A stretch of 64,000 nucleotides of DNA from Escherichia phage HX01: the sequence record NC_018855.1; one strand, 5' to 3'. The first letter of the stretch is position 1; each line of letters opens with the position of its first letter. Below the pieces are notes generated by a model. It worked only from the letters and a program-made list of their open reading frames with translations, had not been told where the DNA came from and did not search any database. A program made the position numbers and the translations under genes. Positions 8,691-46,050 of this stretch are shown in pieces.

Positions 8691-8892
8691 TTCTAAAGCA
8701 GATTATTTTAATTCTGTTAATGATAAGAATAAAGCTTTAATTCGCCACTTTATTACTGAGATGGGATACACTGACTCTAAAGATTTGAAAGAGCACATTA
8801 TCGAATGTTCTGTGGCTAAAAAGTTTTCTTTTACCGATAAATGTTTAAACGAGGTTATAAAGCATTATGAACAATCTTGTAGCAAAACATAA
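8674..8892 (+). CDS. hypothetical early protein (72 aa)
   Basis: ORF with AAGGA RBS, overlaps upstream gene by 17 nt. Confidence 0.45.
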   Translation: MMRIIDSKADYFNSVNDKNKALIRHFITEMGYTDSKDLKEHIIECSVAKKFSFTDKCLNEVIKHYEQSCSKT

Positions 8893-8975
8893 TTTCAATA
8901 AGGCTTCTGTTCATAAGGACAAGAAGAAATCAGAACTTCAATCTAAACGTAAACAAAAACATAAGGGTAAAGACT

Positions 8976-9275
8976 ATGCTTATTAAAATCAAAGAAAATC
9001 CTGCAACTGAACTTGTTATTCGATGCGAAGAACTTGCAGAGCTTTATCAGGTTAACCGAGAAGTATATCGTAGTGTTGTTGCAGATATGGCAGACGAAGT
9101 ATGTTCTCGTATTCCTTTTAGTGTTGATTTCAATCACATGAAGCCTGGTGAAATCACTATCGTCTTTGGTTCTGACTATACTGAAGAACGGGCTCTTAAT
9201 GCCCTAGAATATGAAATGTCGTTCTTCGACATACAGGACTATATTGATAGTTATAAGGAACGATATGAGTCATAA
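8976..9275 (+). CDS. arn: acidic small protein, possible anti-restriction nuclease Arn-like
   Basis: 99 aa acidic protein in the arn position between motA and asiA (T4 Arn about 92 aa); assignment by synteny and composition only. Confidence 0.45.
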   Translation: MLIKIKENPATELVIRCEELAELYQVNREVYRSVVADMADEVCSRIPFSVDFNHMKPGEITIVFGSDYTEERALNALEYEMSFFDIQDYIDSYKERYES

Positions 9276-9426
9276 TCTTCAGAACGTAGTAGAGGCCGAA
9301 CGTGAGCGTGAGGCTTTAGTCTATAATGAACTATTAGTTCCGTTCTTGGCCTTACACTCGTACGAACAGGAAGACTACACCAATTACGTTAAAAGCGTAG
9401 AAAAAGCCATTTACAATCAACACTGA
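9265..9426 (+). CDS. hypothetical small protein (53 aa; asiA.1 position)
   Basis: Internal ATG with AAGGAA RBS inside track ORF 9211..9426; the longer version would overlap the previous gene heavily. Confidence 0.35.
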   Translation: MSHNLQNVVEAEREREALVYNELLVPFLALHSYEQEDYTNYVKSVEKAIYNQH

Positions 9427-9472
9427 TAATGGTACTATATCCATATCAACTAAGTGGAATGAATAAAACGTT

Positions 9473-9745
9473 ATGAATAAAGACATTGAAATCGTACGTG
9501 AAATTATTACTATTGCTTCTATTTTGATTAAATTCTCTAGGGAAGATATTGTTGAAGACCGAGCAAGTTTCATCGGATTCTTGAATGAGATTGGAATTAA
9601 AAAAGATGGTCGGCAGCTAAATCAGAATTCGTTCAGAAAACTAATTACAAATTTAACTGCCGAAGAAAAGAAAACACTGATTAGTGAATTCAACGAAGGT
9701 TTTGAAAATATTTATCGTCATTTAGCGATGTATTCTAACAACTAA
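9473..9745 (+). CDS. asiA: anti-sigma70 factor AsiA
   Basis: 90 aa, N-terminus MNK.I..VREIIT.ASILIKFSREDIVE; same length as T4 AsiA; adjacent to holin t. Confidence 0.9.
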   Translation: MNKDIEIVREIITIASILIKFSREDIVEDRASFIGFLNEIGIKKDGRQLNQNSFRKLITNLTAEEKKTLISEFNEGFENIYRHLAMYSNN

Positions 9746-10405
9746 TTATTTGGCCCTTCCTAGTATTCGGACCGCTTGGTTGCATATAGCCGCTAAGCGA
9801 TCCTCCTCAAGTATATTATTCCCCTTATACCAATACATCGTCACAGTTCCAGCATAGATGTTATCCAAATTAAAGTATGGACAACTATACATATAAGAAA
9901 GTTCGGCAGTCTTAGATTTTGTAGGCAAAAATGCAAATTCTGATTTAGATGAGAAATGACGGCCACTTAAATGAATTATATATTCATTGGCCGTTTTATC
10001 CACCGGGAATCCACCAAGGGACTTTTCAGAAATTGTGCTAGGTAGTTTGCCTTCATAAGCTATAAGGTCGACAAAATAATTTAAGTTTTTAGGTCTGAAA
10101 GAATACACAGCACTAAAATCTGCACCAGATGAGATATGAACTATTTGCAGTTGTTCTAGAGCCGCAGATTCAAAACGTAAAGCTCGTTCTTTTTGGATTA
10201 TTTCAGTATAAGTATCATACTTAGCTCTTACGTAATAATCCAGCAAAATACTTCCTTTGTACCATATTAGTGCCATTAGGAACAAAAGAATAATTACCGC
10301 TACTCGTGACATTAAAACCTTTCCAGTAGCGTTATCTTTGAAAATACGATCTAGCAACCCAAATAGAATATCACTAGGTGAAAATGACACTTTTGGTGTT
10401 GCCAT
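9746..10405 (-). CDS. t: holin T
   Basis: 219 aa (T4 T 218 aa), N-terminal TM segment, located downstream of gene 38. Confidence 0.9.
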   Translation of the reverse strand: MATPKVSFSPSDILFGLLDRIFKDNATGKVLMSRVAVIILLFLMALIWYKGSILLDYYVRAKYDTYTEIIQKERALRFESAALEQLQIVHISSGADFSAVYSFRPKNLNYFVDLIAYEGKLPSTISEKSLGGFPVDKTANEYIIHLSGRHFSSKSEFAFLPTKSKTAELSYMYSCPYFNLDNIYAGTVTMYWYKGNNILEEDRLAAICNQAVRILGRAK

Positions 10406-36775: not shown

Positions 36776-37073
36776 TATGATTTTAACTGAACAAGAAACT
36801 ATGGTTCTTCGTGAACGTATTAAAACTATTCTGTCTGTAGGCGTTCATTGTGTTGTATTTGAAAAGGCTAACGGCGAGGTACGCACTATGTTTGCTTCGC
36901 GCGATGAACTTGAAGTCAAATATGAAAATAACAATCCAGCAACAGAAGTTCGTTATGAACCTCGTGAATCAGTTCGAGCATTCGATACCAAGTTAGGCCA
37001 GTGGCGTTCTTTCCGCCTTGATAAAGTAATTTCGGTTGATGGTACTCCGGCGGAACGTTTGCTTCTTATGTAA
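36765..37073 (+). CDS. hypothetical protein (102 aa)
   Basis: ORF overlapping cd stop; alternative start at 36777. Confidence 0.5.
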   Translation: MVNNMILTEQETMVLRERIKTILSVGVHCVVFEKANGEVRTMFASRDELEVKYENNNPATEVRYEPRESVRAFDTKLGQWRSFRLDKVISVDGTPAERLLLM

Positions 37074-37130
37074 TATGCTTTACGAATAGTATGGTATTAT
37101 TAATCTATCGTCAAACAACAAGGAAATAAG

Positions 37131-37463
37131 ATGTCTGAAGTACAACTCCCAATTCGTGCTGTTGGTGAATATGTCATTCTGGTTTCTGAACCCGCTCAAG
37201 CAGGTGATGAAGAAGTTACAGAATCAGGACTTGTGATTGGTAAACGTGTTCAAGGTGAAGTTCCTGAACTATGTGTAGTTCATTCTGTAGGTCCTGATGT
37301 TCCTGAAGGTTTTGTTGAAGTCGGTGATTTGACTCCACTACCAGTTGGACAAATTCGAAATGTTCCACATCCATTTGTGGCTTTGGGACTTAAACAACCT
37401 AAAGAAATTAAACAGAAATTCGTAACATGCCACTATAAAGCTATTCCGTGTCTTTATAAGTGA
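37131..37463 (+). CDS. 31: co-chaperonin gp31 (GroES analogue for capsid protein folding)
   Basis: 110 aa (T4 gp31 111 aa); GroES-like start [17 protein letters not shown]; AAGGAAATAAG RBS. Confidence 0.85.
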
Positions 37464-37471
37464 TATAAATA
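37464..37471 (+). promoter_or_regulatory. late promoter (TATAAATA) upstream of rIII leader
   Basis: TATAAATA just after gene 31 stop; 116-nt structured leader follows. Confidence 0.5.
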
Positions 37472-37587
37472 ACTATATGAAGAGAACACTCTTCTAAGCG
37501 GTAGCCTACAACTGAGAGACTTGTCGAAAGAAGGTGAAATTCAGACGAACGTGGCTACTAAATATTATCTCGAATTGAGAATTTAAA

Positions 37588-37836
37588 ATGATTAAACAAT
37601 TACAACACGCTCTTGAACTGCAACGAAACGCATGGAATAACGGTCACGAAAACTACGGTGCGTCAATTGATGTTGAAGCCGAAGCACTGGAAATCCTGCG
37701 ATATTTCAAACATCTGAATCCTGCTCAGGCTACTCTGGCTTCTGAACTGGAAGCTAAAGATGAATTGAAATATGCTAAGCCTCTGGCTTCTGCAGCACGC
37801 AAAGCAGTTCGTCATTTTGTTATTACCCTGAAGTAA
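37588..37836 (+). CDS. rIII: lysis inhibition accessory protein rIII
   Basis: 82 aa (T4 RIII 82 aa) downstream of gene 31; long structured leader with late promoter. Confidence 0.6.
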   Translation: MIKQLQHALELQRNAWNNGHENYGASIDVEAEALEILRYFKHLNPAQATLASELEAKDELKYAKPLASAARKAVRHFVITLK

Positions 37837-37858
37837 GTTAAATCGAGGAGCCGTCGAA

Positions 37859-38050
37859 TTGTCTGATTATCGATTTGCGAATCGGTATGTTTTAGAAGTA
37901 CCGCCCCGACAATTTTACGGTGTACCTCTTGAATGTTACTATCATGCGTCAGAAAAGTGTTATCTGTGTAAGTCTTGGTGGTATGATGACGAGGTTTATG
38001 GTTATCCTGTCGTTAAATATCCAAAACCTATGTTCCCCTTGAGGGCTTGA
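37859..38050 (+). CDS. hypothetical Cys/Tyr-rich small protein (63 aa, TTG start)
   Basis: Track ORF begins at TTG 8 nt after GAGGAG; no ATG alternative. Confidence 0.3.
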   Translation: MSDYRFANRYVLEVPPRQFYGVPLECYYHASEKCYLCKSWWYDDEVYGYPVVKYPKPMFPLRA

Positions 38051-38098
38051 GCAGGCAATGTCAATAAGTCCTGCATTTTCATTTAAAGAGAATTTATA

Positions 38099-38278
38099 AT
38101 GGCAAAACAAGCTAAAGCAAAGAAAGCAGTTGAAAAGAAAGTTGATGGTACCTCTAAACGCGCTGGATACAAGCGTGGGTCGAACTCTCGTATTAATCAA
38201 ACAGTTGAGAAGATCATGCGCAGAGCACGTGCAGTTCTTCGAGATGATGCTTCTCGTTTTGGAAAGGTTGTTGCATAA
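38099..38278 (+). CDS. small lysine/arginine-rich basic protein (59 aa), not in ORF track
   Basis: ATG at 38099; product MAKQAKAKKAVEKKVDGTSKRAGYKRGSNSR...; stop 5 nt before a perfect UUCG terminator hairpin. Confidence 0.45.
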   Translation: MAKQAKAKKAVEKKVDGTSKRAGYKRGSNSRINQTVEKIMRRARAVLRDDASRFGKVVA

Positions 38279-38283
38279 TTTTA

Positions 38284-38305
38284 GGGAGACTTCGGTCTCC
38301 CTTTT
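38284..38305 (+). terminator. rho-independent terminator after 59-aa basic ORF
   Basis: GGGAGAC-TTCG-GTCTCCC followed by TTTTG. Confidence 0.8.
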
Positions 38306-38338
38306 GTGCGTTTAGGGCAGAAAAAGTTTAAAAAAGAT

Positions 38339-38372
38339 GTTTACTCTCCTGTAGGATGTGTTACTATAGACT
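38339..38372 (+). promoter_or_regulatory. early promoter
   Basis: GTTTAC at 38339; GGATGTGTTACTATAGAC; precedes ORF 38409. Confidence 0.55.
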
Positions 38373-38408
38373 TGTACCACCTAATCAATAAAACAATCGG
38401 AGAATAAA

Positions 38409-38777
38409 ATGAAAATCAATCTGAACTCATACATCAAATGTAAAGACCACGACGGTTATAAAGCTATCGAAATTAAAGAATTCCAGTGGATGTTATACAA
38501 AGAGCAATTTGAGTTCGTAGGTTGTATGACCCCTGAAGGTCCTTCAGATGATTTCTCTTGGAAAATTGTGCTAGCAAACTTTTTCACAGGTGACACATAT
38601 GAATTAAAAACTATTATTACCGGTAAAATTCGTTCAGAAACATATGTTGACGAAGAAACTGGTTACTCTGAAGATGTTACATGGTATCAAAATGGACGCA
38701 TTACAGCAGATAACCTGATCGAAAAAATGAAAGCCAAAGGTGTTTTAAATTTAGACAATTGGATTAAAGTTGCATAA
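38409..38777 (+). CDS. hypothetical early protein (122 aa)
   Basis: ORF with GGAGAATAAA RBS after early promoter. Confidence 0.55.
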   Translation: MKINLNSYIKCKDHDGYKAIEIKEFQWMLYKEQFEFVGCMTPEGPSDDFSWKIVLANFFTGDTYELKTIITGKIRSETYVDEETGYSEDVTWYQNGRITADNLIEKMKAKGVLNLDNWIKVA

Positions 38778-38781
38778 AACA

Positions 38782-38821
38782 GTTTACTTTGGTACAGGTT
38801 ATGTTATTATAGACCTGTACC
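38782..38821 (+). promoter_or_regulatory. early promoter embedded in stem-loop (arms GGTACAGG/CCTGTACC)
   Basis: GTTTAC at 38782; core TTATGTTATTATAGA flanked by 8-bp inverted repeat. Confidence 0.6.
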
Positions 38822-38851
38822 AACAAACAACTTAAACATCTGGAGAATAAA

Positions 38852-39217
38852 ATGAACTACACCAACTTCGAACGCAAATATGTTTCTAACGGTATCGCTG
38901 GTTCTATCGATATGGTTTGTTTGTGGAAGCATAAAAATGGTTCAGTATGTGAAATTGAGCAGTGCATGACTCCTAATTATGTTTATATGCGATTTGAAAA
39001 TGGCATCACGGTTTCAATCACGACGGAAGGTTCAAATTTTAAAATTGCATTAGATGATGATTTCCGTCAGCGTGATTTAGGTACTCATCCTTGCTGGAAC
39101 GGCGTTAATCGTAAACTTCTGGTTAAAACTTGGATTCGTCATATCCTGAGTAACCGAGCTAAACCTGAACATCTCGAAGCAATCTTTGATGTAGTTCTTA
39201 ACGAATTCGATATCTAA
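38852..39217 (+). CDS. hypothetical early protein (121 aa)
   Basis: ORF with GGAGAATAAA RBS after early promoter with 8-bp inverted-repeat arms; hairpin after stop. Confidence 0.55.
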   Translation: MNYTNFERKYVSNGIAGSIDMVCLWKHKNGSVCEIEQCMTPNYVYMRFENGITVSITTEGSNFKIALDDDFRQRDLGTHPCWNGVNRKLLVKTWIRHILSNRAKPEHLEAIFDVVLNEFDI

Positions 39218-39224
39218 TTTAACT

Positions 39225-39240
39225 GGGAGCTTCGGCTCCC
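39225..39240 (+). terminator. UUCG hairpin after ORF 38852..39217 (no U tract; possibly a stabilising or processing hairpin)
   Basis: GGGAGC-TTCG-GCTCCC followed by ACTGAGG. Confidence 0.35.
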
Positions 39241-39252
39241 ACTGAGGAAATT

Positions 39253-39867
39253 ATGTTTAAAGTTAATACTTTTTATAAAATGAATTTTAAAAATGGGGAT
39301 ATTACTCCACGCCTTAAAAACATGTTCTCATATGACCTTATCGAGCCTTTTGAAGTTTTAGAAGTTACTGATGCCGGCTCGGTTTGTGAAATTAGAACTT
39401 CTGAAGGTAAAATTTATCAGGCAGGTGTTGGTAAATTTAGTAATTGTTTTACTTTAATATTCTCGACCGATTTAGATGAGCATTTTATTGAATGTCCTAG
39501 CCCTAAGGTCTACGAAGTTCCACATCAAGAAACTAAGAAAAATGGCCCACACGAATATACGAAGGTTGAAACTCCTCATGGCGTGATGTGGCGTCATAAC
39601 TCTCCTTTTGGAAGTAAAGGAACATTTGCTCAACCGTCTAAACCGTATGATGATGAAAAATACATCGTCGTCTTTTTATCTGAACAGGGTACTCAAGACC
39701 GTGGATGCCAACGAAGTGGTTTACTAAGTGAACTTGAAGCTCATAACCAAGCACGTGAATTCGTTGAGAAAAATCCTGGTTCTGAAGCTCTAGTCATGAA
39801 AGCAATTACTCAATATATCACTGCTCAACCTGTTGTTCATCCGGTAGAAATTAATTTCGTTAAGTAG
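39253..39867 (+). CDS. hypothetical protein (204 aa)
   Basis: ORF with GAGGAAATT RBS; no recognised motif. Confidence 0.55.
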   Translation: MFKVNTFYKMNFKNGDITPRLKNMFSYDLIEPFEVLEVTDAGSVCEIRTSEGKIYQAGVGKFSNCFTLIFSTDLDEHFIECPSPKVYEVPHQETKKNGPHEYTKVETPHGVMWRHNSPFGSKGTFAQPSKPYDDEKYIVVFLSEQGTQDRGCQRSGLLSELEAHNQAREFVEKNPGSEALVMKAITQYITAQPVVHPVEINFVK

Positions 39868-39898
39868 TTTACATCCAAGGACGGATTAGAGTATAACG
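39867..39898 (+). promoter_or_regulatory. early promoter
   Basis: GTTTAC at 39867; -10 TATAAC; precedes ORF 39922. Confidence 0.45.
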
Positions 39899-39921
39899 AT
39901 TTCTTTAGTAAGTGGAAAAAT

Positions 39922-40119
39922 ATGAAATTTTTAATAGCACAAACAGTCCAATTAAAAGGTGTTGGAATTCCTGGGGTGATTTTTAAAGTTCTCCCTGAAT
40001 TTAAAACCGCCGCTGGAATTATCAATGAAGCGTATGCTGTTCAATGGGTTGATTGGACTTCTGACATACGTATGGGTAAAGAGTTATCTCCTATTAAAGG
40101 GTTGAAACATGTTGAATAA
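39922..40119 (+). CDS. hypothetical protein (65 aa)
   Basis: ORF after early promoter. Confidence 0.45.
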   Translation: MKFLIAQTVQLKGVGIPGVIFKVLPEFKTAAGIINEAYAVQWVDWTSDIRMGKELSPIKGLKHVE

Positions 40120-40321
40120 ATTAATCCAGAAATTGTTAGGTACAGAAATGGTTGAAGTTACGTATCGTGTGACTGACTGCTCGCCTATTCATCCACAGGA
40201 TGAACCATTTATCAAGACAATTAAAATGCTTAAAAACGATGGTGGTTTATCTATTGAAGACCGTCTGCCTAGTTACGGTCATTGGGCTGATGTTGAAATT
40301 ATAAGTGTTAAAGATGTCTGA
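40109..40321 (+). CDS. hypothetical protein (70 aa)
   Basis: ORF overlapping upstream gene by 11 nt. Confidence 0.45.
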   Translation: MLNKLIQKLLGTEMVEVTYRVTDCSPIHPQDEPFIKTIKMLKNDGGLSIEDRLPSYGHWADVEIISVKDV

Positions 40322-40772
40322 ATTAGAAATAAGAAGCAATTTCAAATGGCCGTCATGCGCATTAAGTAATTTCGCCCAATGGCCTTTTGTTATGGATGGT
40401 ATTCAATTCGGAGGACTTGAAGGATTTCTCCAAGGATGTAAGGTGAAAAACGTTGAACAACAAAAACGTATATTTGGGTTGTCTGGATTGGCTGCACAGC
40501 AAGCTGGAAGGTCTTATGCAAGAGCTCAGGACCGTGGGACTCTCTTCTGGTTAGGAGTTCCATTTTCAAGATACTCTGAAGCGTGGAAAGAATTATACAC
40601 AAATGCATATTTTGAAGCCGCGATCCAAAACAAGGGGTTTCGTGATGCCTTACAAGCCTCTAAAGGAAAAATTTTGAAGCACAGCATGGCCAGCCACCTA
40701 ACAAAAGATGATACAATATTAACCGAAGCTGAATTTATTGATGTGTTAAACCTATTAAGAGACTCTTTATGA
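40314..40772 (+). CDS. NADAR / YbiA-like domain protein (putative ADP-ribose or N-glycoside processing enzyme)
   Basis: Segment SNFAQWPFVMDGIQF...EGFLQGCKV aligns by eye with the YbiA/NADAR signature (SNFA.WP...DG...E.YFQA.KF); ATG at 40314 chosen over the upstream GTG. Confidence 0.55.
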   Translation: MSELEIRSNFKWPSCALSNFAQWPFVMDGIQFGGLEGFLQGCKVKNVEQQKRIFGLSGLAAQQAGRSYARAQDRGTLFWLGVPFSRYSEAWKELYTNAYFEAAIQNKGFRDALQASKGKILKHSMASHLTKDDTILTEAEFIDVLNLLRDSL

Positions 40773-41605
40773 AACCTACTATTTTGACTGATATTGATGG
40801 TGTATGTTTAAGCTGGCAATCTGGACTTCCTTATTTTGCCCAAAAATATAATCTTCCATTAGAACATATTTTAAAAATGATTCAGGACGAAAAATTTATT
40901 TCTCCTGGTAAACTATTCAATACCGACGATGACCTCGGTAAACAATTAATAGAAAAATATAATCGCTCTGATTTTATTCGTTACTTAGCGCCTTATTCGG
41001 ATGCTCTTCGAGTTATCAATAAACTAAAAGAAGACTATAATTTTGTAGCCGTGACGGCGCTAGGTGATTCAATTGATGCTCGATTGAATAGACAATTTAA
41101 TTTGAATGCTTTGTTCCCAGGCGCTTTCTCTGAAGTAATGATGTGTGGTCATGATTCTTCAAAGGAACAATTATTCGAACTAGCTAAAACAAAATATAAC
41201 GTGATTTGTTACGTTGACGATTTAGCTCATCACTGTGACCATGCAGCAGAAATTCTTAATGTACCGATTTATTGGTTGGCTCGTGGTGAACGTGATGATA
41301 TTCCTCGCACTGCACAACGTGTACACACGTGGGATGATATTGAATCTCGTTTGGTTCTACCAGAGCATAATTCAGATTCAGATCGTGAAGACCTTTTAAA
41401 ACGATTGGCGGATTTGCTTAAAGAATCTGGTGCAACAAGTCCAGGTGCATGGCCTAATCAAATTGGCGCTCCGTCGAATCCGTACACCTGGCGAACTCCA
41501 GGACCAACCGATATGCTGCCTCATTGGCGATACACTAATGTAGGCGAACATCCTGTTCCTCCGTATTGGGCAGTTCCACAAGGTTACGGCACAACTAAGG
41601 GTTAA
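40769..41605 (+). CDS. HAD-superfamily phosphatase (putative nucleotidase) with Pro/Trp-rich C-terminal tail
   Basis: N-terminal HAD motif I ILTDIDGV; second Asp-rich segment CYVDDLAHH; 278 aa; stop overlaps next start. Confidence 0.6.
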   Translation: MKPTILTDIDGVCLSWQSGLPYFAQKYNLPLEHILKMIQDEKFISPGKLFNTDDDLGKQLIEKYNRSDFIRYLAPYSDALRVINKLKEDYNFVAVTALGDSIDARLNRQFNLNALFPGAFSEVMMCGHDSSKEQLFELAKTKYNVICYVDDLAHHCDHAAEILNVPIYWLARGERDDIPRTAQRVHTWDDIESRLVLPEHNSDSDREDLLKRLADLLKESGATSPGAWPNQIGAPSNPYTWRTPGPTDMLPHWRYTNVGEHPVPPYWAVPQGYGTTKG

Positions 41606-41607
41606 TT

Positions 41608-41877
41608 ATGTTTGTAGTTCATGATATTACAGATGGCAAAAACACCACACGTGACTACGGTCACGTTAACATGTTCTTTCGAGACTGGCCATTGTTTCGT
41701 TCAGTAAAAGACGCAGAAATATTTAAAGAGTGTGTTGAACAAGGGTTCATCTACATTTCAGAATACTATGTTGAAGGACTCGGTAAATGGATTACCACTT
41801 ATCAGAAAACGCTGAAATCGCTTCTAGATGAAGTGGCTTATAATAGAACCGTAACCAAAATCGAGGACATCAAATGA
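41608..41877 (+). CDS. hypothetical protein (89 aa)
   Basis: ORF between HAD phosphatase and ligase; overlaps ligase start. Confidence 0.5.
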   Translation: MFVVHDITDGKNTTRDYGHVNMFFRDWPLFRSVKDAEIFKECVEQGFIYISEYYVEGLGKWITTYQKTLKSLLDEVAYNRTVTKIEDIK

Positions 41878-43367
41878 TTTTAGATATTTTAAACCAAATA
41901 GCTGCGATCGGTTCTACTAAAACAAAACAAGAAATCCTTAAGAAAAATAAGGACAACAAATTACTTGAACGTGTGTATCGTTTAACATATGCACGTGGTA
42001 TCCAGTATTATATTAAGAAATGGCCAGGACCAGGTGAAAGGTCTCAAGCGTATGGTCTTCTTGAATTAGATGACATGTTGGATTTTATTGAGTTCACATT
42101 AGCCACTCGTAAACTCACTGGTAATGCTGCAATTAAAGAGCTCATGGGTTATATCGCTGACGGTAAACCTGATGATGTAGAAGTCCTTCGTCGTGTAATG
42201 ATGCGAGACCTTGAAGTAGGTGCTTCAGTGTCTATCGCGAATAAGGTGTGGCCTGGACTTATTCAATTGCAACCACAGATGTTAGCATCTGCATATGATG
42301 AGAAATTGATTACTAAAAATATTAAATGGCCCGCATTTGCCCAATTAAAAGCAGATGGTGCTCGTTGTTTCGCTGAAGTTCGCGATGATGGTGTTCAATT
42401 CTTTTCTCGTGCCGGTAATGAATACCATGGTCTTACTCTATTAGCTGATGAACTAATGGAAATGACTAAAGAAGCTCGTGAAAGACACCCTAATGGGGTT
42501 TTAATCGACGGTGAATTAGTTTATCATTCATTTGATATTAAAAAGGCTGTGAGCTCAGGAAATGACCTGTCGTTCTTATTTGGTGATAATGAAGAATCCG
42601 AAGAAGTACAAGTTGCAGACCGTAGCACTTCAAATGGTTTAGCAAATAAATCTCTTCAAGGGACTATTTCTCCTAAAGAAGCGGAAGGTATGGTTCTTCA
42701 AGCCTGGGACTATGTTCCTTTAGATGAAGTCTATTCTGATGGCAAAATTAAAGGTCAGAAATACGATGTTCGTTTTGCTGCTCTTGAAAATATGGCTGAA
42801 GGCTTTAAGCGAATTGAGCCAATTGAAAATCAGTTAGTTCGTAATCTTGACGAAGCTAAAGTGGTTTATAAAAAATATGTTGACCAAGGTCTTGAAGGTA
42901 TTATCCTTAAAAACCGTGATTCATACTGGGAAAACAAACGCTCTAAGAACCTAATTAAATTTAAAGAAGTTATTGATATCGCTTTAGAAGTTGTAGGATA
43001 CTATGAACACTCTAAAGACCCTAACAAATTAGGTGGTGTCGAACTCGTATCACGTTGTCGTCGTATTACAACCGATTGTGGTTCAGGGTTTAAAGATACA
43101 ACTCATAAAACAGTTGATGGTGTAAAGGTTCTTATTCCTTTAGATGAGCGTCATGATTTGGACCGTGAACGATTAATGACCGAAGCTCGTGAAGGTAAAT
43201 TGATTGGACGTATTGCTGATTGTGAATGCAATGGTTGGGTTCATTCTAAAGGACGTGAAGGCACTGTAGGTATTTTCCTTCCAATTATTAAAGGGTTCCG
43301 TTTTGATAAAACAGAAGCGGATTCGTTTGAAGACGTATTTGGACCGTGGTCCCAGACAGGTTTATAA
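41874..43367 (+). CDS. 30: ATP-dependent DNA ligase gp30
   Basis: 497 aa; adenylation motif AFAQLKADGARC (KxDG); start MILDILNQIAAIGSTKTKQEIL. Confidence 0.95.
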   Translation: MILDILNQIAAIGSTKTKQEILKKNKDNKLLERVYRLTYARGIQYYIKKWPGPGERSQAYGLLELDDMLDFIEFTLATRKLTGNAAIKELMGYIADGKPDDVEVLRRVMMRDLEVGASVSIANKVWPGLIQLQPQMLASAYDEKLITKNIKWPAFAQLKADGARCFAEVRDDGVQFFSRAGNEYHGLTLLADELMEMTKEARERHPNGVLIDGELVYHSFDIKKAVSSGNDLSFLFGDNEESEEVQVADRSTSNGLANKSLQGTISPKEAEGMVLQAWDYVPLDEVYSDGKIKGQKYDVRFAALENMAEGFKRIEPIENQLVRNLDEAKVVYKKYVDQGLEGIILKNRDSYWENKRSKNLIKFKEVIDIALEVVGYYEHSKDPNKLGGVELVSRCRRITTDCGSGFKDTTHKTVDGVKVLIPLDERHDLDRERLMTEAREGKLIGRIADCECNGWVHSKGREGTVGIFLPIIKGFRFDKTEADSFEDVFGPWSQTGL

Positions 43368-43555
43368 TGAAAGCTTATTTAGAAACAGTTATTGTAGCTA
43401 AGAAGGATGGTGGAGATGTTTCCACCTCTTGCTCTCAGATTATATTAGATTTTCCTAATGAAAATTCGTATCGGGTTTTCGTAGATAACGTTAATGGGTA
43501 CGAAAAAGGCCCTAATTTTGAAGTTTATCGTACTTTGCTCCCGATTGTGGATTAA
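43367..43555 (+). CDS. hypothetical protein (62 aa)
   Basis: ATG overlapping ligase stop (TAATG); followed by UUCG hairpin terminator. Confidence 0.4.
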   Translation: MKAYLETVIVAKKDGGDVSTSCSQIILDFPNENSYRVFVDNVNGYEKGPNFEVYRTLLPIVD

Positions 43556-43574
43556 GAGCCTTCGGGCTCTTTTT
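43555..43574 (+). terminator. rho-independent terminator after ligase operon
   Basis: AGAGCC-TTCG-GGCTCT followed by TTTTGG. Confidence 0.7.
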
Positions 43575-43610
43575 GGCATAAATATAAATTATTACTAAAA
43601 GGAAAACACT

Positions 43611-45698
43611 ATGTCTGAACAATTAAATGAAGTGTTTGAATCTGAAGGCAGTCTTCCTGTCGTCAATTTGAACCCTAAAGCTAAAGTTCCACAAGTCTGG
43701 AAAATTGGTGATATCGATACAAACATCGTAGTTCGCTTATTCTCTTACCTTTCTGAAGGCGATGCTGTAAAACAAGTTAAACTTGGCGACAAATACGCTC
43801 ATGTTGTTATTATGAGTCTGTCTGAAAAGGGTAATCTCGCTGAATTGAAAAATGGCCTTGGTCCTGCTCCTATTGATGCAATCAACACCATTTTCAATAC
43901 AGTATATGAACAGGTTAAAGCTCTTCGTATGGATGCAGTTCTGTTCCGATTCCCTACCAAGAAATTGAAAGGACGTGGACAACAACTTCAAACTCTTCTT
44001 GCTCGTTTAGTTTCTACTAAAACCGGTGGACGTTTTAAAGTATTGTCGGCAATGTATCAATTCACAGGTAAACACACCTATGTGATGATGGTTCGTAAAA
44101 ATGCCAACATTGACGATATTAAAGGCATCCCTAACATTAACACAGAGTTGTACACGAAAGTAGATTCTGATGTTGGTGAAGTTTATGTGAGTAAAAAGAC
44201 CGGCGAAACGGTCACCAAAGAAACGGCTATCGCTGGTTCTATTGCTGCTGTAGAAGAAAAACGTAAAGATAAGCCTGTTATTGCTCGTACTAAAATTTCT
44301 CGTCGTGCTATTGCAGCAAGTCAATCTTTAGAAGCTGACCGTCAAGAAGGTGAGTTATTCCAGAAATACGAAAATTCTGCTAAAGAAGTTAGTGGCCCAG
44401 CTACAGCCGAATTACTTCCTGAAGCATATGAAATCGTACTAGCCCAAGCATCGTCCACAGCAAAAGGCACTTTAGTTGCTGATATCGAAAATAAGATTTA
44501 TAATCGTATTGATGAATCCTTTAGATTTGCTGATGAAGTTTCTTATGGTAGTGTTATTAAGCCAACTTTAGAAAAGTTTGCTAAGAAAATTAAAACTGAA
44601 AAAACAACATCTGTTAAAGCATTAGCTGCTTTTGTTGAAGCTGCAAATGAAATTGCAGACTCTATTAAAGACGAATGGTTTGAAGATTTTAGACGTGATA
44701 ATTTCCAACTGGCTGACGACGTTTTAGCTGAAGTATCTGAAAAAACTTGGAAACAACGTAAATCAGCGTTCTTGTCTAATGTGATGTATACTTATGCACG
44801 AGAATCGGCTAGAGGCACCTTTAATATAACAATGAATCGGGACCCTAAACAATACTCTGTTGCTGAAAAACGAGCTATTCGTGAATATGCCTCTTCTGCG
44901 TATACCGATATCAATAATATGTTGTTAGGTCGTTATAAACCAGATTTTTACGATGTTGCAGATGAAGATGAAGTTAAACGCGCTATTGATGGTCTTGATT
45001 CGGCGTTCTTAAATGGAGACCGTTTACCTGAAGGACTAACGTTATATAGAGCTCAGTCTATCAGAATGCCTATTTACGAAGCAATGGTTAAAAATAAGGT
45101 ATTCTACTTCAGAAACTATGTTTCCACTTCACTAGCTCCTATTATTTTCGGTGGGTTTAAAGAGAACGTTGCCCTTGGACTTGCTCCTGAAGAAGTTCGC
45201 AAAGAGCTTAACATTGACAATAATGACGAAGGTGTTACTATTTCTCCTAGTCAAGTAAGAACAGCTATGCATGCACCAGACCAAATCCGTGTTAACGTTG
45301 GATGGGCTATTGATGGCGCCCATAAAGTTAACGTGATTTATCCTGGACAGTTGAGTAATCACCCTAATGAGCAAGAAATTATTTTGCCTAGAGGCATTCT
45401 CTTGCAGATAAATAAAATTACGGATGCGTCATCTGACACTGGTGCAGGTTTAGAATCCAACCTTAAATTTATTCAAGCTGAAGTTATGTCCTCAGACCAG
45501 TTGGACGAAGCTGTCATTTACGATGGTGATGTTCTCATGGAAACAGGTGAGGTGGTTGCTATGACTGGTGAAATCGAATCAGATGAACCGATATCGTTCT
45601 CTTCATTTGTAGAAAAAACTAGTGCTCCTAAAGGATTGAAATTGTTAGCATCTTTAATGGATTTAGAATCAGTTCCGTTTAAATTTGTCCAAGGATAG
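43611..45698 (+). CDS. alt: ADP-ribosyltransferase Alt (head-packaged)
   Basis: 695 aa (T4 Alt 682 aa) located between ligase and the gene 54 baseplate block as in T4. Confidence 0.8.
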   Translation: MSEQLNEVFESEGSLPVVNLNPKAKVPQVWKIGDIDTNIVVRLFSYLSEGDAVKQVKLGDKYAHVVIMSLSEKGNLAELKNGLGPAPIDAINTIFNTVYEQVKALRMDAVLFRFPTKKLKGRGQQLQTLLARLVSTKTGGRFKVLSAMYQFTGKHTYVMMVRKNANIDDIKGIPNINTELYTKVDSDVGEVYVSKKTGETVTKETAIAGSIAAVEEKRKDKPVIARTKISRRAIAASQSLEADRQEGELFQKYENSAKEVSGPATAELLPEAYEIVLAQASSTAKGTLVADIENKIYNRIDESFRFADEVSYGSVIKPTLEKFAKKIKTEKTTSVKALAAFVEAANEIADSIKDEWFEDFRRDNFQLADDVLAEVSEKTWKQRKSAFLSNVMYTYARESARGTFNITMNRDPKQYSVAEKRAIREYASSAYTDINNMLLGRYKPDFYDVADEDEVKRAIDGLDSAFLNGDRLPEGLTLYRAQSIRMPIYEAMVKNKVFYFRNYVSTSLAPIIFGGFKENVALGLAPEEVRKELNIDNNDEGVTISPSQVRTAMHAPDQIRVNVGWAIDGAHKVNVIYPGQLSNHPNEQEIILPRGILLQINKITDASSDTGAGLESNLKFIQAEVMSSDQLDEAVIYDGDVLMETGEVVAMTGEIESDEPISFSSFVEKTSAPKGLKLLASLMDLESVPFKFVQG

Positions 45699-45735
45699 TT
45701 TACAAACACATGGATGTGTGATACTATCATCCCAT
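45698..45735 (+). promoter_or_regulatory. early promoter with stem-loop (GGATG...CATCC)
   Basis: GTTTAC at 45698; GGATGTGTGATACTATCATCC. Confidence 0.55.
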
Positions 45736-45756
45736 CAACAACATGAGGAAAACGTT

Positions 45757-46050
45757 ATGAAATCTATGCTTCGCTTTAATGGTCAAGAACTAGTAGTTGA
45801 AGATGTTATCCCAGCGGATGATGCTTTTAACGAAGCTGTGATTGACGAATTGAATCGAGTATTCCCAGGTGCATTCCATATTGCTATGGAACCTCTTAAA
45901 AACTTTCGTGACCCTGAGCACACTGATCAAATTTTTGTCGGTGTAGTGACAGGTCATTTAGAAACAGAGGTACCAATGGTCGTATTAGTTAAATACTCTA
46001 AAGATGATACTCCATTCCGAGCACCAGCATTCCTTTCATTCCGTAAATAA
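45757..46050 (+). CDS. hypothetical protein (98 aa)
   Basis: ATG at 45757 after early promoter and GAGGAAAA RBS; track ORF start at 45685 lies inside the promoter. Confidence 0.5.
   Translation: MKSMLRFNGQELVVEDVIPADDAFNEAVIDELNRVFPGAFHIAMEPLKNFRDPEHTDQIFVGVVTGHLETEVPMVVLVKYSKDDTPFRAPAFLSFRK

Follow-up and report, generated by a model that had tools for sequence, protein, structure and literature searches.

A full-length adfN (gene 30.3) in Escherichia phage HX01, a predicted anti-DarT factor, and its neighbour gene 30.2, an NT5C-like HAD phosphatase gene

Escherichia phage HX01 carries, in the 64,000-nt stretch of its record NC_018855.1 analysed here (the window, whose coordinates and strand are used throughout), two adjoining genes, 30.3 and 30.2, which the original prediction, made from the DNA letters alone, had read as a possible ADP-ribose-processing module of a NADAR/YbiA-like protein and a HAD hydrolase. 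It is very probable that gene 30.3 is an active adfN, the gene for the anti-DarT factor NADAR of phage T4, directed against the host defence system DarTG1, that gene 30.2 specifies a separate, NT5C-like enzyme, and that the two do not constitute a functional pair. By its DNA the phage is a T4-like Mosigvirus close to Escherichia phage JS09, which is 97% identical to the window over the 2 kb around the two genes (many other listed relatives are 94-97% identical to the same 2 kb), and the order of the 30.x-30-alt region, read on the opposite strand in T4 and RB69, matches that of both phages, with the two open reading frames (ORFs) corresponding to their genes 30.3 and 30.2. The peptide strings quoted in the original prediction were all found in the window, as was the overlap of the second gene with the stop codon of the first.

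The placement of gp30.3 (152 residues) among the NADAR proteins did not come from a curated model. The protein matches the Pfam family PF08010 (Phage_30_3) with an E-value of 2.4e-69 and gives no match at E<=1 to the Pfam NADAR model, PF08719, and with direct Pfam/NCBIfam assignment to NADAR below threshold, profiles and predicted folds were used instead. A profile built from 45 diverse gp30.3 homologues had a single match in the PDB, E. coli YbiA (2b3w, E 0.0015), in an alignment that spans the SNFA...E..Q..K segment and sets E36 and K43 against its E..Q..KF. The AlphaFold (AF2) model of gp30.3, with a predicted local distance difference test (pLDDT) score of 93.9 and a predicted template modelling (TM) score of 0.89, has strands at residues 3-5, 25-27, 30-32, 76-79, 82-85 and 120-122, six helices of at least seven residues (35-41, 47-54, 58-66, 89-105, 107-115 and 138-151) and a short turn at 14-17. 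Its top Foldseek match was again YbiA 2b3w (E 1.6e-4, query-normalised TM-score 0.67), followed, at probabilities of 0.99 and 0.93, by 8bau, a Phytophthora NADAR in complex with ADP-ribose, and 8bat, a DarT1-linked NADAR from Geobacter; these three are the only solved NADAR structures, and all other PDB matches had probabilities of 0.04 or lower. One homologue (P0182) carries both PF08010 and PF08719, and several are named YbiA/DUF1768 by JGI. Profile and model together place gp30.3 in the NADAR superfamily, with a predicted YbiA fold, much as had been proposed for the ORF at 40314..40772. Structure prediction, one of the checks suggested at the time, bore the proposal out, and another, a hidden Markov model search, did so in part: the PF08010 match was obtained, that to PF08719 was not, and for the adjoining protein the HAD_2 score fell below its cut-off.

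The residues expected of a NADAR enzyme are in place. No member of the 45-sequence family alignment departs from E36, K43 or H123, and the first two correspond to E43 and K50 of PnNADAR, which contact the distal ribose and the phosphates of ADP-ribose (PMC11543638; PMC11125620). At the last-strand position YbiA has Glu, DarG1-type NADARs have Asp and the NADARs of phages, i.e., the gp30.3 group, have His (PMC11543638; PMC11125620), and it is H123 that occupies this position in the window protein. The fold is shared with YbiA and with the DarG1/DarT1-associated NADAR antitoxins (the BC4488 family, with G. lovleyi 8bat and E. coli C7) at Foldseek probabilities of 0.93-1.00, and the Glu and Lys contacts to ADP-ribose and the guanine-ADP-ribose hydrolase chemistry are common to these proteins and AdfN. 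The differences are nonetheless considerable: identity is only 16-19%, His stands in place of the Asp of DarG1 or the Glu of YbiA, and AdfN is the product of an orphan gene with no linked toxin that, unlike the DarG1-type antitoxins, has no antitoxin action in uninfected cells. As a separate observation, the out-of-frame internal ORF 30.3' of T4 (40450..40677, inside adfN) is not conserved in the window, where its frame has no ATG start and has an internal stop, which, as a comparison of sequences, argues against 30.3' as a real gene.

What gp30.3 would do in the infected cell can be read from T4, whose gp30.3 is 96% identical to that of the window over all 152 residues (six substitutions: K11R, K51R, E89P, I120V, M125I and H128G) and has in common with it the flanking genes 30.4 and 30.2, the catalytic E36, K43 and H123, and the C-terminal helix. 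The phages differ in that HX01 is a Mosigvirus; the DNA of RB69, a related Mosigvirus, is according to the AdfN paper arabinosylated and not glucosylated. In vitro the T4 protein hydrolyses guanine-ADP-ribose and not thymine-ADP-ribose (Toxins 2024, PMC11125620), and it was named AdfN, for anti-DarT factor NADAR, by Johannesman, Carlson and LeRoux (bioRxiv 2024, PMC11257639; Nat Commun 2025, PMC11825919). In their work, deletion of adfN from T4 or T2 reduced plaquing on DarTG1 hosts by about four logs, ectopic AdfN restored the plaquing of RB69 on such hosts, and the substitutions E36A and K43A impaired rescue (PMC11257639; PMC11825919). An independent transposon study of T4 (HIDEN-SEQ) found insertions in 30.3 to be neutral on K-12 and lost under DarTG1, with a log2 fold change of -7.25 (adjusted p 0). 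In the mechanism shown for T4 and T2, DarT1 of the DarTG1 toxin-antitoxin system ADP-ribosylates guanines in the phage DNA and blocks its replication, and AdfN, a stand-alone N-glycosidase of NADAR fold, splits ADP-ribose from the guanines of the DNA, so that the adducts are removed and replication proceeds. For HX01 we infer these steps from the 96% identity, the intact E36, K43 and H123, and the intact C-terminal helix. The suggestion that the NADAR protein undoes what a DarT-type toxin does to guanines, and thereby works against an ADP-ribosylating defence of the host, is therefore one that has been demonstrated for a close orthologue, and since the role of T4 AdfN was established in 2024-25, this part of the finding is already known.

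In the same transposon data gene 30.4 was also depleted under DarTG1 (log2 fold change -1.79, adjusted p 0.014), and 30.5 gave -3.0, which was not significant. Because 30.4 overlaps the start of adfN by 8 nt, a polar or translational-coupling effect is the likely cause of the 30.4 depletion, although 30.4 may instead be a helper under DarTG1.

A related Mosigvirus shows what the truncation of this protein can entail. The gp30.3 of RB69, a naturally inactive allele, is 97% identical to that of the window over residues 1-137 and ends at T137, since an extra T (window ACCGAAG, RB69 ACTTGAAG) introduces a TGA and costs the protein its last 15 residues; of the two phages, only RB69 loses the C-terminal helix. 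RB69 is sensitive to DarTG1, and C-terminal truncation of AdfN lowers its activity (PMC11257639; PMC11825919), the sensitivity being accounted for by the premature stop and the missing helix. The T insertion is absent from the window, the ORF runs for 152 codons and the helix (138-151) is present in the model. With this intact allele, unlike RB69, HX01 is predicted to be resistant to DarTG1.

The proximity of the phage's own ADP-ribosyltransferase gene, alt, which the original prediction had correctly pointed out, invites another reading, namely that AdfN mainly regulates the ADP-ribosylation carried out by the phage itself, on the targets of Alt, ModA and ModB, and not that by the host DarT. 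alt lies on the same strand ~2.8 kb downstream of adfN, and earlier comparative work noted that T4-like phages express their NADAR genes early, alongside those of the ADP-ribosyltransferases (PMC9503650). Yet T4 30.3 has no phenotype when DarTG1 is absent, insertions having been recovered at 27/28 sites without fitness effect (+0.12 for LB versus M9), alt is neutral under DarTG1, and many relatives have their NADAR gene at a great distance from alt. Moreover, AdfN acts on guanine-ADP-ribose in DNA and Alt, according to a note in the T4 record, modifies arginine in protein. A tuning of Alt-driven modification, which had been offered as an alternative role, is thus very unlikely.

The same scepticism must be applied to the idea that adfN and 30.2 make up one counter-defence unit, in which gp30.2 would act downstream of AdfN by dephosphorylating ADP-ribose, ADP-ribose-1''-phosphate or ribose-5-phosphate, or by clearing a phosphoribosyl remnant. 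The attraction of such a module is easily appreciated: the genes adjoin and share an ATGA, both in the window and in all close T-even relatives (at 14 loci they overlap or are gapless), the failure of AdfN alone in uninfected cells leaves room for a phage-encoded helper, and the sufficiency tests were made with RB69, which has a gp30.2 of its own. The genetics of T4 speak otherwise. Under DarTG1, insertions at 71 sites in 30.2 gave a log2 fold change of -0.12 (p 0.61), against the -7.25 of 30.3, and 30.1 and alt gave -0.01 each; 30.2 insertions were also neutral when the phage was grown in M9 (-0.10) or on a clinical isolate (-0.21), and the gene is non-essential, with 72/72 sites hit. For DarTG1 the module is largely refuted by these data, which also argue against gp30.2 as a phage cofactor that AdfN might lack in uninfected cells. 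Nor does the chemistry call for a second enzyme, since NADAR hydrolysis frees ADP-ribose and leaves the base intact (PMC11543638), so that no phosphatase step is needed.

Gene neighbourhoods across viruses point in the same direction. A gp30.2 homologue was found within 6 kb at 19/80 viral contigs with a gp30.3-family NADAR locus and was not within that distance at the other 61. Viewed from the side of gp30.2, a NADAR gene was within 6 kb at 37/78 loci, and a DNA ligase gene was downstream at 71/78, mostly within 300 bp and at the furthest ~1.5 kb away. In at least 10 complete Straboviridae genomes (~160-175 kb) a distance of 50-60 kb separates the NADAR gene from the pair of gp30.2 and ligase genes (locus pairs L028/L127, L031/L146, L050/L102, L055/L154, L056/L105, L060/L098, L061/L116, L072/L104, L076/L100 and L077/L101), and therefore the NADAR gene has either changed its place or come in by a separate acquisition, with gp30.2 remaining beside the ligase. 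The adjacency and the ATGA overlap are explained by the location of both genes in the dense early run 30.5-30.4-30.3-30.2-30.1-30 of the T-even phages. Together with the family to which gp30.2 is closest, that of the NT5C nucleotidases and not of any ADP-ribose-related phosphatase, this makes the joint action of the two proteins highly improbable; a functional NADAR-HAD module is not supported, and gp30.2 is tied to DNA ligase more consistently than to NADAR.

Several points nevertheless weigh against the view of 30.3 as an active adfN with an unrelated neighbour. The window protein differs from T4 AdfN at the six positions given above, and its function is taken over from the T4 allele. In uninfected E. 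coli, AdfN gives no rescue from DarT1 (PMC11125620 and the AdfN paper), i.e., it needs a phage-specific context, which the authors attribute to a preference for hydroxymethyl-cytosine DNA and which may also reflect a phage cofactor other than gp30.2. Finally, the conserved gene order of the Straboviridae is owed in part to common descent and not to function alone, and gp30.2 may have an auxiliary or redundant role despite the neutrality of T4 insertions under laboratory conditions.

gp30.2 itself is the HAD-superfamily hydrolase that it was taken for. The DxD, T/S, K and DD of the four HAD motifs sit on a Rossmannoid core, with D8, D10 and K132 invariant and T96 and D150-D151 nearly so among 42-43 homologues, and the predicted fold matches HAD structures. 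Residues 1-200 of the AF2 model have pLDDT >90, and a helical C1 cap (~13-88) is inserted directly after motif I. Against the curated HAD models the protein remains below threshold (HAD_2, 15.2 bits and E 0.024 versus a cut-off of 23.8; TIGR01428, 12.5 bits versus 125.4). As far as the model goes, the fold alone does not choose a subfamily; its HAD matches include the deoxyribonucleotidases 3bwv, 2jao, 2i7d and 4yih, and these lead the fold matches both in target-normalised TM-score and in identity. When the PDB was searched with gp30.2, as a single sequence and as a profile, mouse cdN 2jao was the only recurrent match, a weak one (E 0.18 and 0.63), and an amidase match from these marginal searches was rejected as spurious. 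The 2jao alignment sets the DxDGV and the invariant W16 of gp30.2 against DGVLADF, with W16 opposite F20, and so provides the aromatic residue that NT5C enzymes have eight positions after the nucleophile Asp. From the structural literature on cdN/mdN, we take F20 to be the residue that stacks on the nucleotide base.

Remote relatives brought the subfamily into better view. Among 1.84 billion representative proteins, a search by profile identified 1,084 relatives of gp30.2, and a Pfam scan of 82 remote ones matched NT5C in 35 (best E 4e-10), HAD_2 in 16, Hydrolase in 15 and HAD_PNKP in one. gp30.2 itself has no match to Pfam NT5C (PF06941), six of 42 close homologues match it at E<=0.1 (best 0.003), and a distant viral homologue (L156) scores 24.0 bits against the NT5C cut-off of 24.8. 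The NT5C 5'(3')-deoxyribonucleotidases (cdN/mdN 2jao, 2i7d and 4yih, and S. epidermidis 3bwv) are thus the closest relatives of gp30.2, at 16-19% identity and below every curated threshold, and they are without the extra helix and the ~60-residue disordered tail of the phage protein. Given this resemblance, gp30.2 most likely dephosphorylates a small nucleotide monophosphate: it would be a HAD phosphatase that requires Mg, carries a C1 cap built of helices and acts, separately from AdfN, on a nucleoside monophosphate. Our literature search on gp30.2 found no paper, and a broader one returned irrelevant matches only. The extra regions of four multidomain remote relatives (P0261, P0303, P0207 and P0249) match no Pfam family. 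One 302-residue homologue (P0016), on a 1.4 kb contig, is apparently fused to the gp30.1 domain DUF3045 (PF11243); the fusion may be genuine or an artefact of read-through or of sequencing. A distant homologue of 28% identity (L159, region 2405..10366) has neither a ligase nor a NADAR gene in its vicinity and lies in a DNA-replication context, among genes for a clamp-loader AAA protein, a Pol III alpha fragment, PhoH and HNH.

The constancy of the ligase linkage raises the question of whether gp30.2 could be a DNA end-healing enzyme, a 3'-phosphatase that readies nicks or breaks for the ligase gp30 in the manner of the HAD domain of T4 Pnkp. The large C1 cap argues against it. Capped HADs, as Burroughs et al. 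are said to have set out in 2006, generally take small substrates, and capless (C0) ones such as Pnkp take macromolecules. NT5C matches outnumber those to HAD_PNKP by 35 to 1 among the remote relatives, T4 already encodes Pnkp, and the ligase linkage may be mere inherited gene order. End healing is accordingly an improbable function for gp30.2, and a small-molecule nucleotidase the better description.

The C-terminal tail of gp30.2, described in the original prediction as unusual and rich in Pro and Trp, comprises residues 220-278 and is predicted to be disordered and, by comparison with relatives, hypervariable. The homologues are 196 to 347 residues long, a large number of them have no tail, the tails barely align, and the motif W...TWRTPG is the only part common to the window, T4 and RB69. 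The DNA of 30.2 in the window and RB69 is near-identical to ~41525, unrelated for ~75 nt (~41526..41600) and reconverges at the stop codon and the start of 30.1; the two tails as frameshifted versions of each other are ruled out by the unrelated DNA. At the level of sequence, the extreme C-terminus is a small hypervariable cassette. It is speculative that the tail serves as a docking segment.

The features discussed and their neighbours are collected in Table 1. The genes from 30.5 to alt are tightly packed, with start and stop codons that overlap or abut. A promoter and terminator scan of 37000-46000 gave counts not above those of shuffled controls (30 versus 25.8 and 8 versus 5.0), and no claim about transcription units is therefore made from it. 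In the slot of the ~95-residue gene 30.6 of T4 and RB69, the window has a 204-residue ORF (39253..39867, + strand; phrog_17531, E 9e-146; no Pfam family), which looks like a mosaic gene replacement in an otherwise syntenic early region.

Table 1. Positions of adfN, gene 30.2 and adjoining genes in the window.
Feature	Coordinates	Strand	Basis
Gene 30.5	39922..40119	+	
Gene 30.4, 70 aa, unknown function	40109..40321	+	phrog_2042 E 5e-34; overlaps adfN start by 8 nt
adfN (gene 30.3), 152-aa NADAR-superfamily predicted DNA ADP-ribosylglycohydrolase, full-length allele	40314..40772	+	PF08010, T4 identity, AF2, Foldseek
Codon E36, catalytic glutamate (= PnNADAR E43)	40419..40421	+	GAA in frame; invariant
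Codon K43, ADP-ribose-contacting lysine (= PnNADAR K50)	40440..40442	+	AAG in frame; invariant
Codon H123, phage NADAR subgroup residue	40680..40682	+	CAC in frame; invariant; directly after model strand 120-122
Codons 138-152, C-terminal helix, lost in RB69 allele, intact here	40725..40769	+	Model helix 138-151
ATGA start/stop overlap of adfN and gene 30.2	40769..40772	+	Read from sequence
Gene 30.2, HAD phosphatase	40769..41605	+	ORF, HAD motifs
Gene 30.2 residues 1-195, C1-capped HAD phosphatase core, NT5C-like	40769..41353	+	
gp30.2 motif I, D8/D10	40790-40798	+	
gp30.2 motif II, T96	41054-41056	+	
gp30.2 motif III, K132	41162-41164	+	
gp30.2 motif IV, D150-D151	41216-41221	+	
Gene 30.2 residues 203-219, predicted helix joining core to tail	41375..41425	+	AF2 helix 203-219
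Gene 30.2 residues 220-278 and stop, Pro/Trp/Gly-rich tail, predicted disordered	41426..41605	+	pLDDT 45-55
Gene 30.1 (DUF3045)	41608..41877	+	Pfam PF11243 E 1.4e-26
Gene 30, ATP-dependent DNA ligase	41874..43367	+	Pfam DNA_ligase_A_M E 1.9e-26
alt.1	between gene 30 and alt	+	
alt, ADP-ribosyltransferase	43611..45698	+	Pfam ADPrib_exo_Tox E 6e-28

Why the T4-like phages keep a nucleotidase-like gp30.2, which is widely conserved (about 1,400 phage records), beside their DNA ligase is a small gap in T4 biology. One answer, which we consider a long shot, is that gp30.2 is no mere housekeeping remnant but an NT5C-like nucleotidase whose tail docks on a phage or host partner (the ligase, the replisome or the complex that synthesises deoxynucleoside triphosphates), where it removes a harmful nucleotide monophosphate, e.g., a defence-derived or non-canonical nucleotide. 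If this were true, gp30.2 would represent a second, DarT-independent counter-defence or pool-sanitising function beside the ligase throughout the Straboviridae. AdfN, for its part, is an enzymatic counter-defence that the phage itself encodes, an orphan antitoxin by which the ADP-ribosylation of DNA is reversed, as has been published for T4. To this the window makes a modest addition in the form of a Mosigvirus with an intact adfN, which, unlike RB69, should resist DarTG1, and a resistance of this kind, predicted from the genome, would be useful in the choice of phages for hosts that bear DarTG1.

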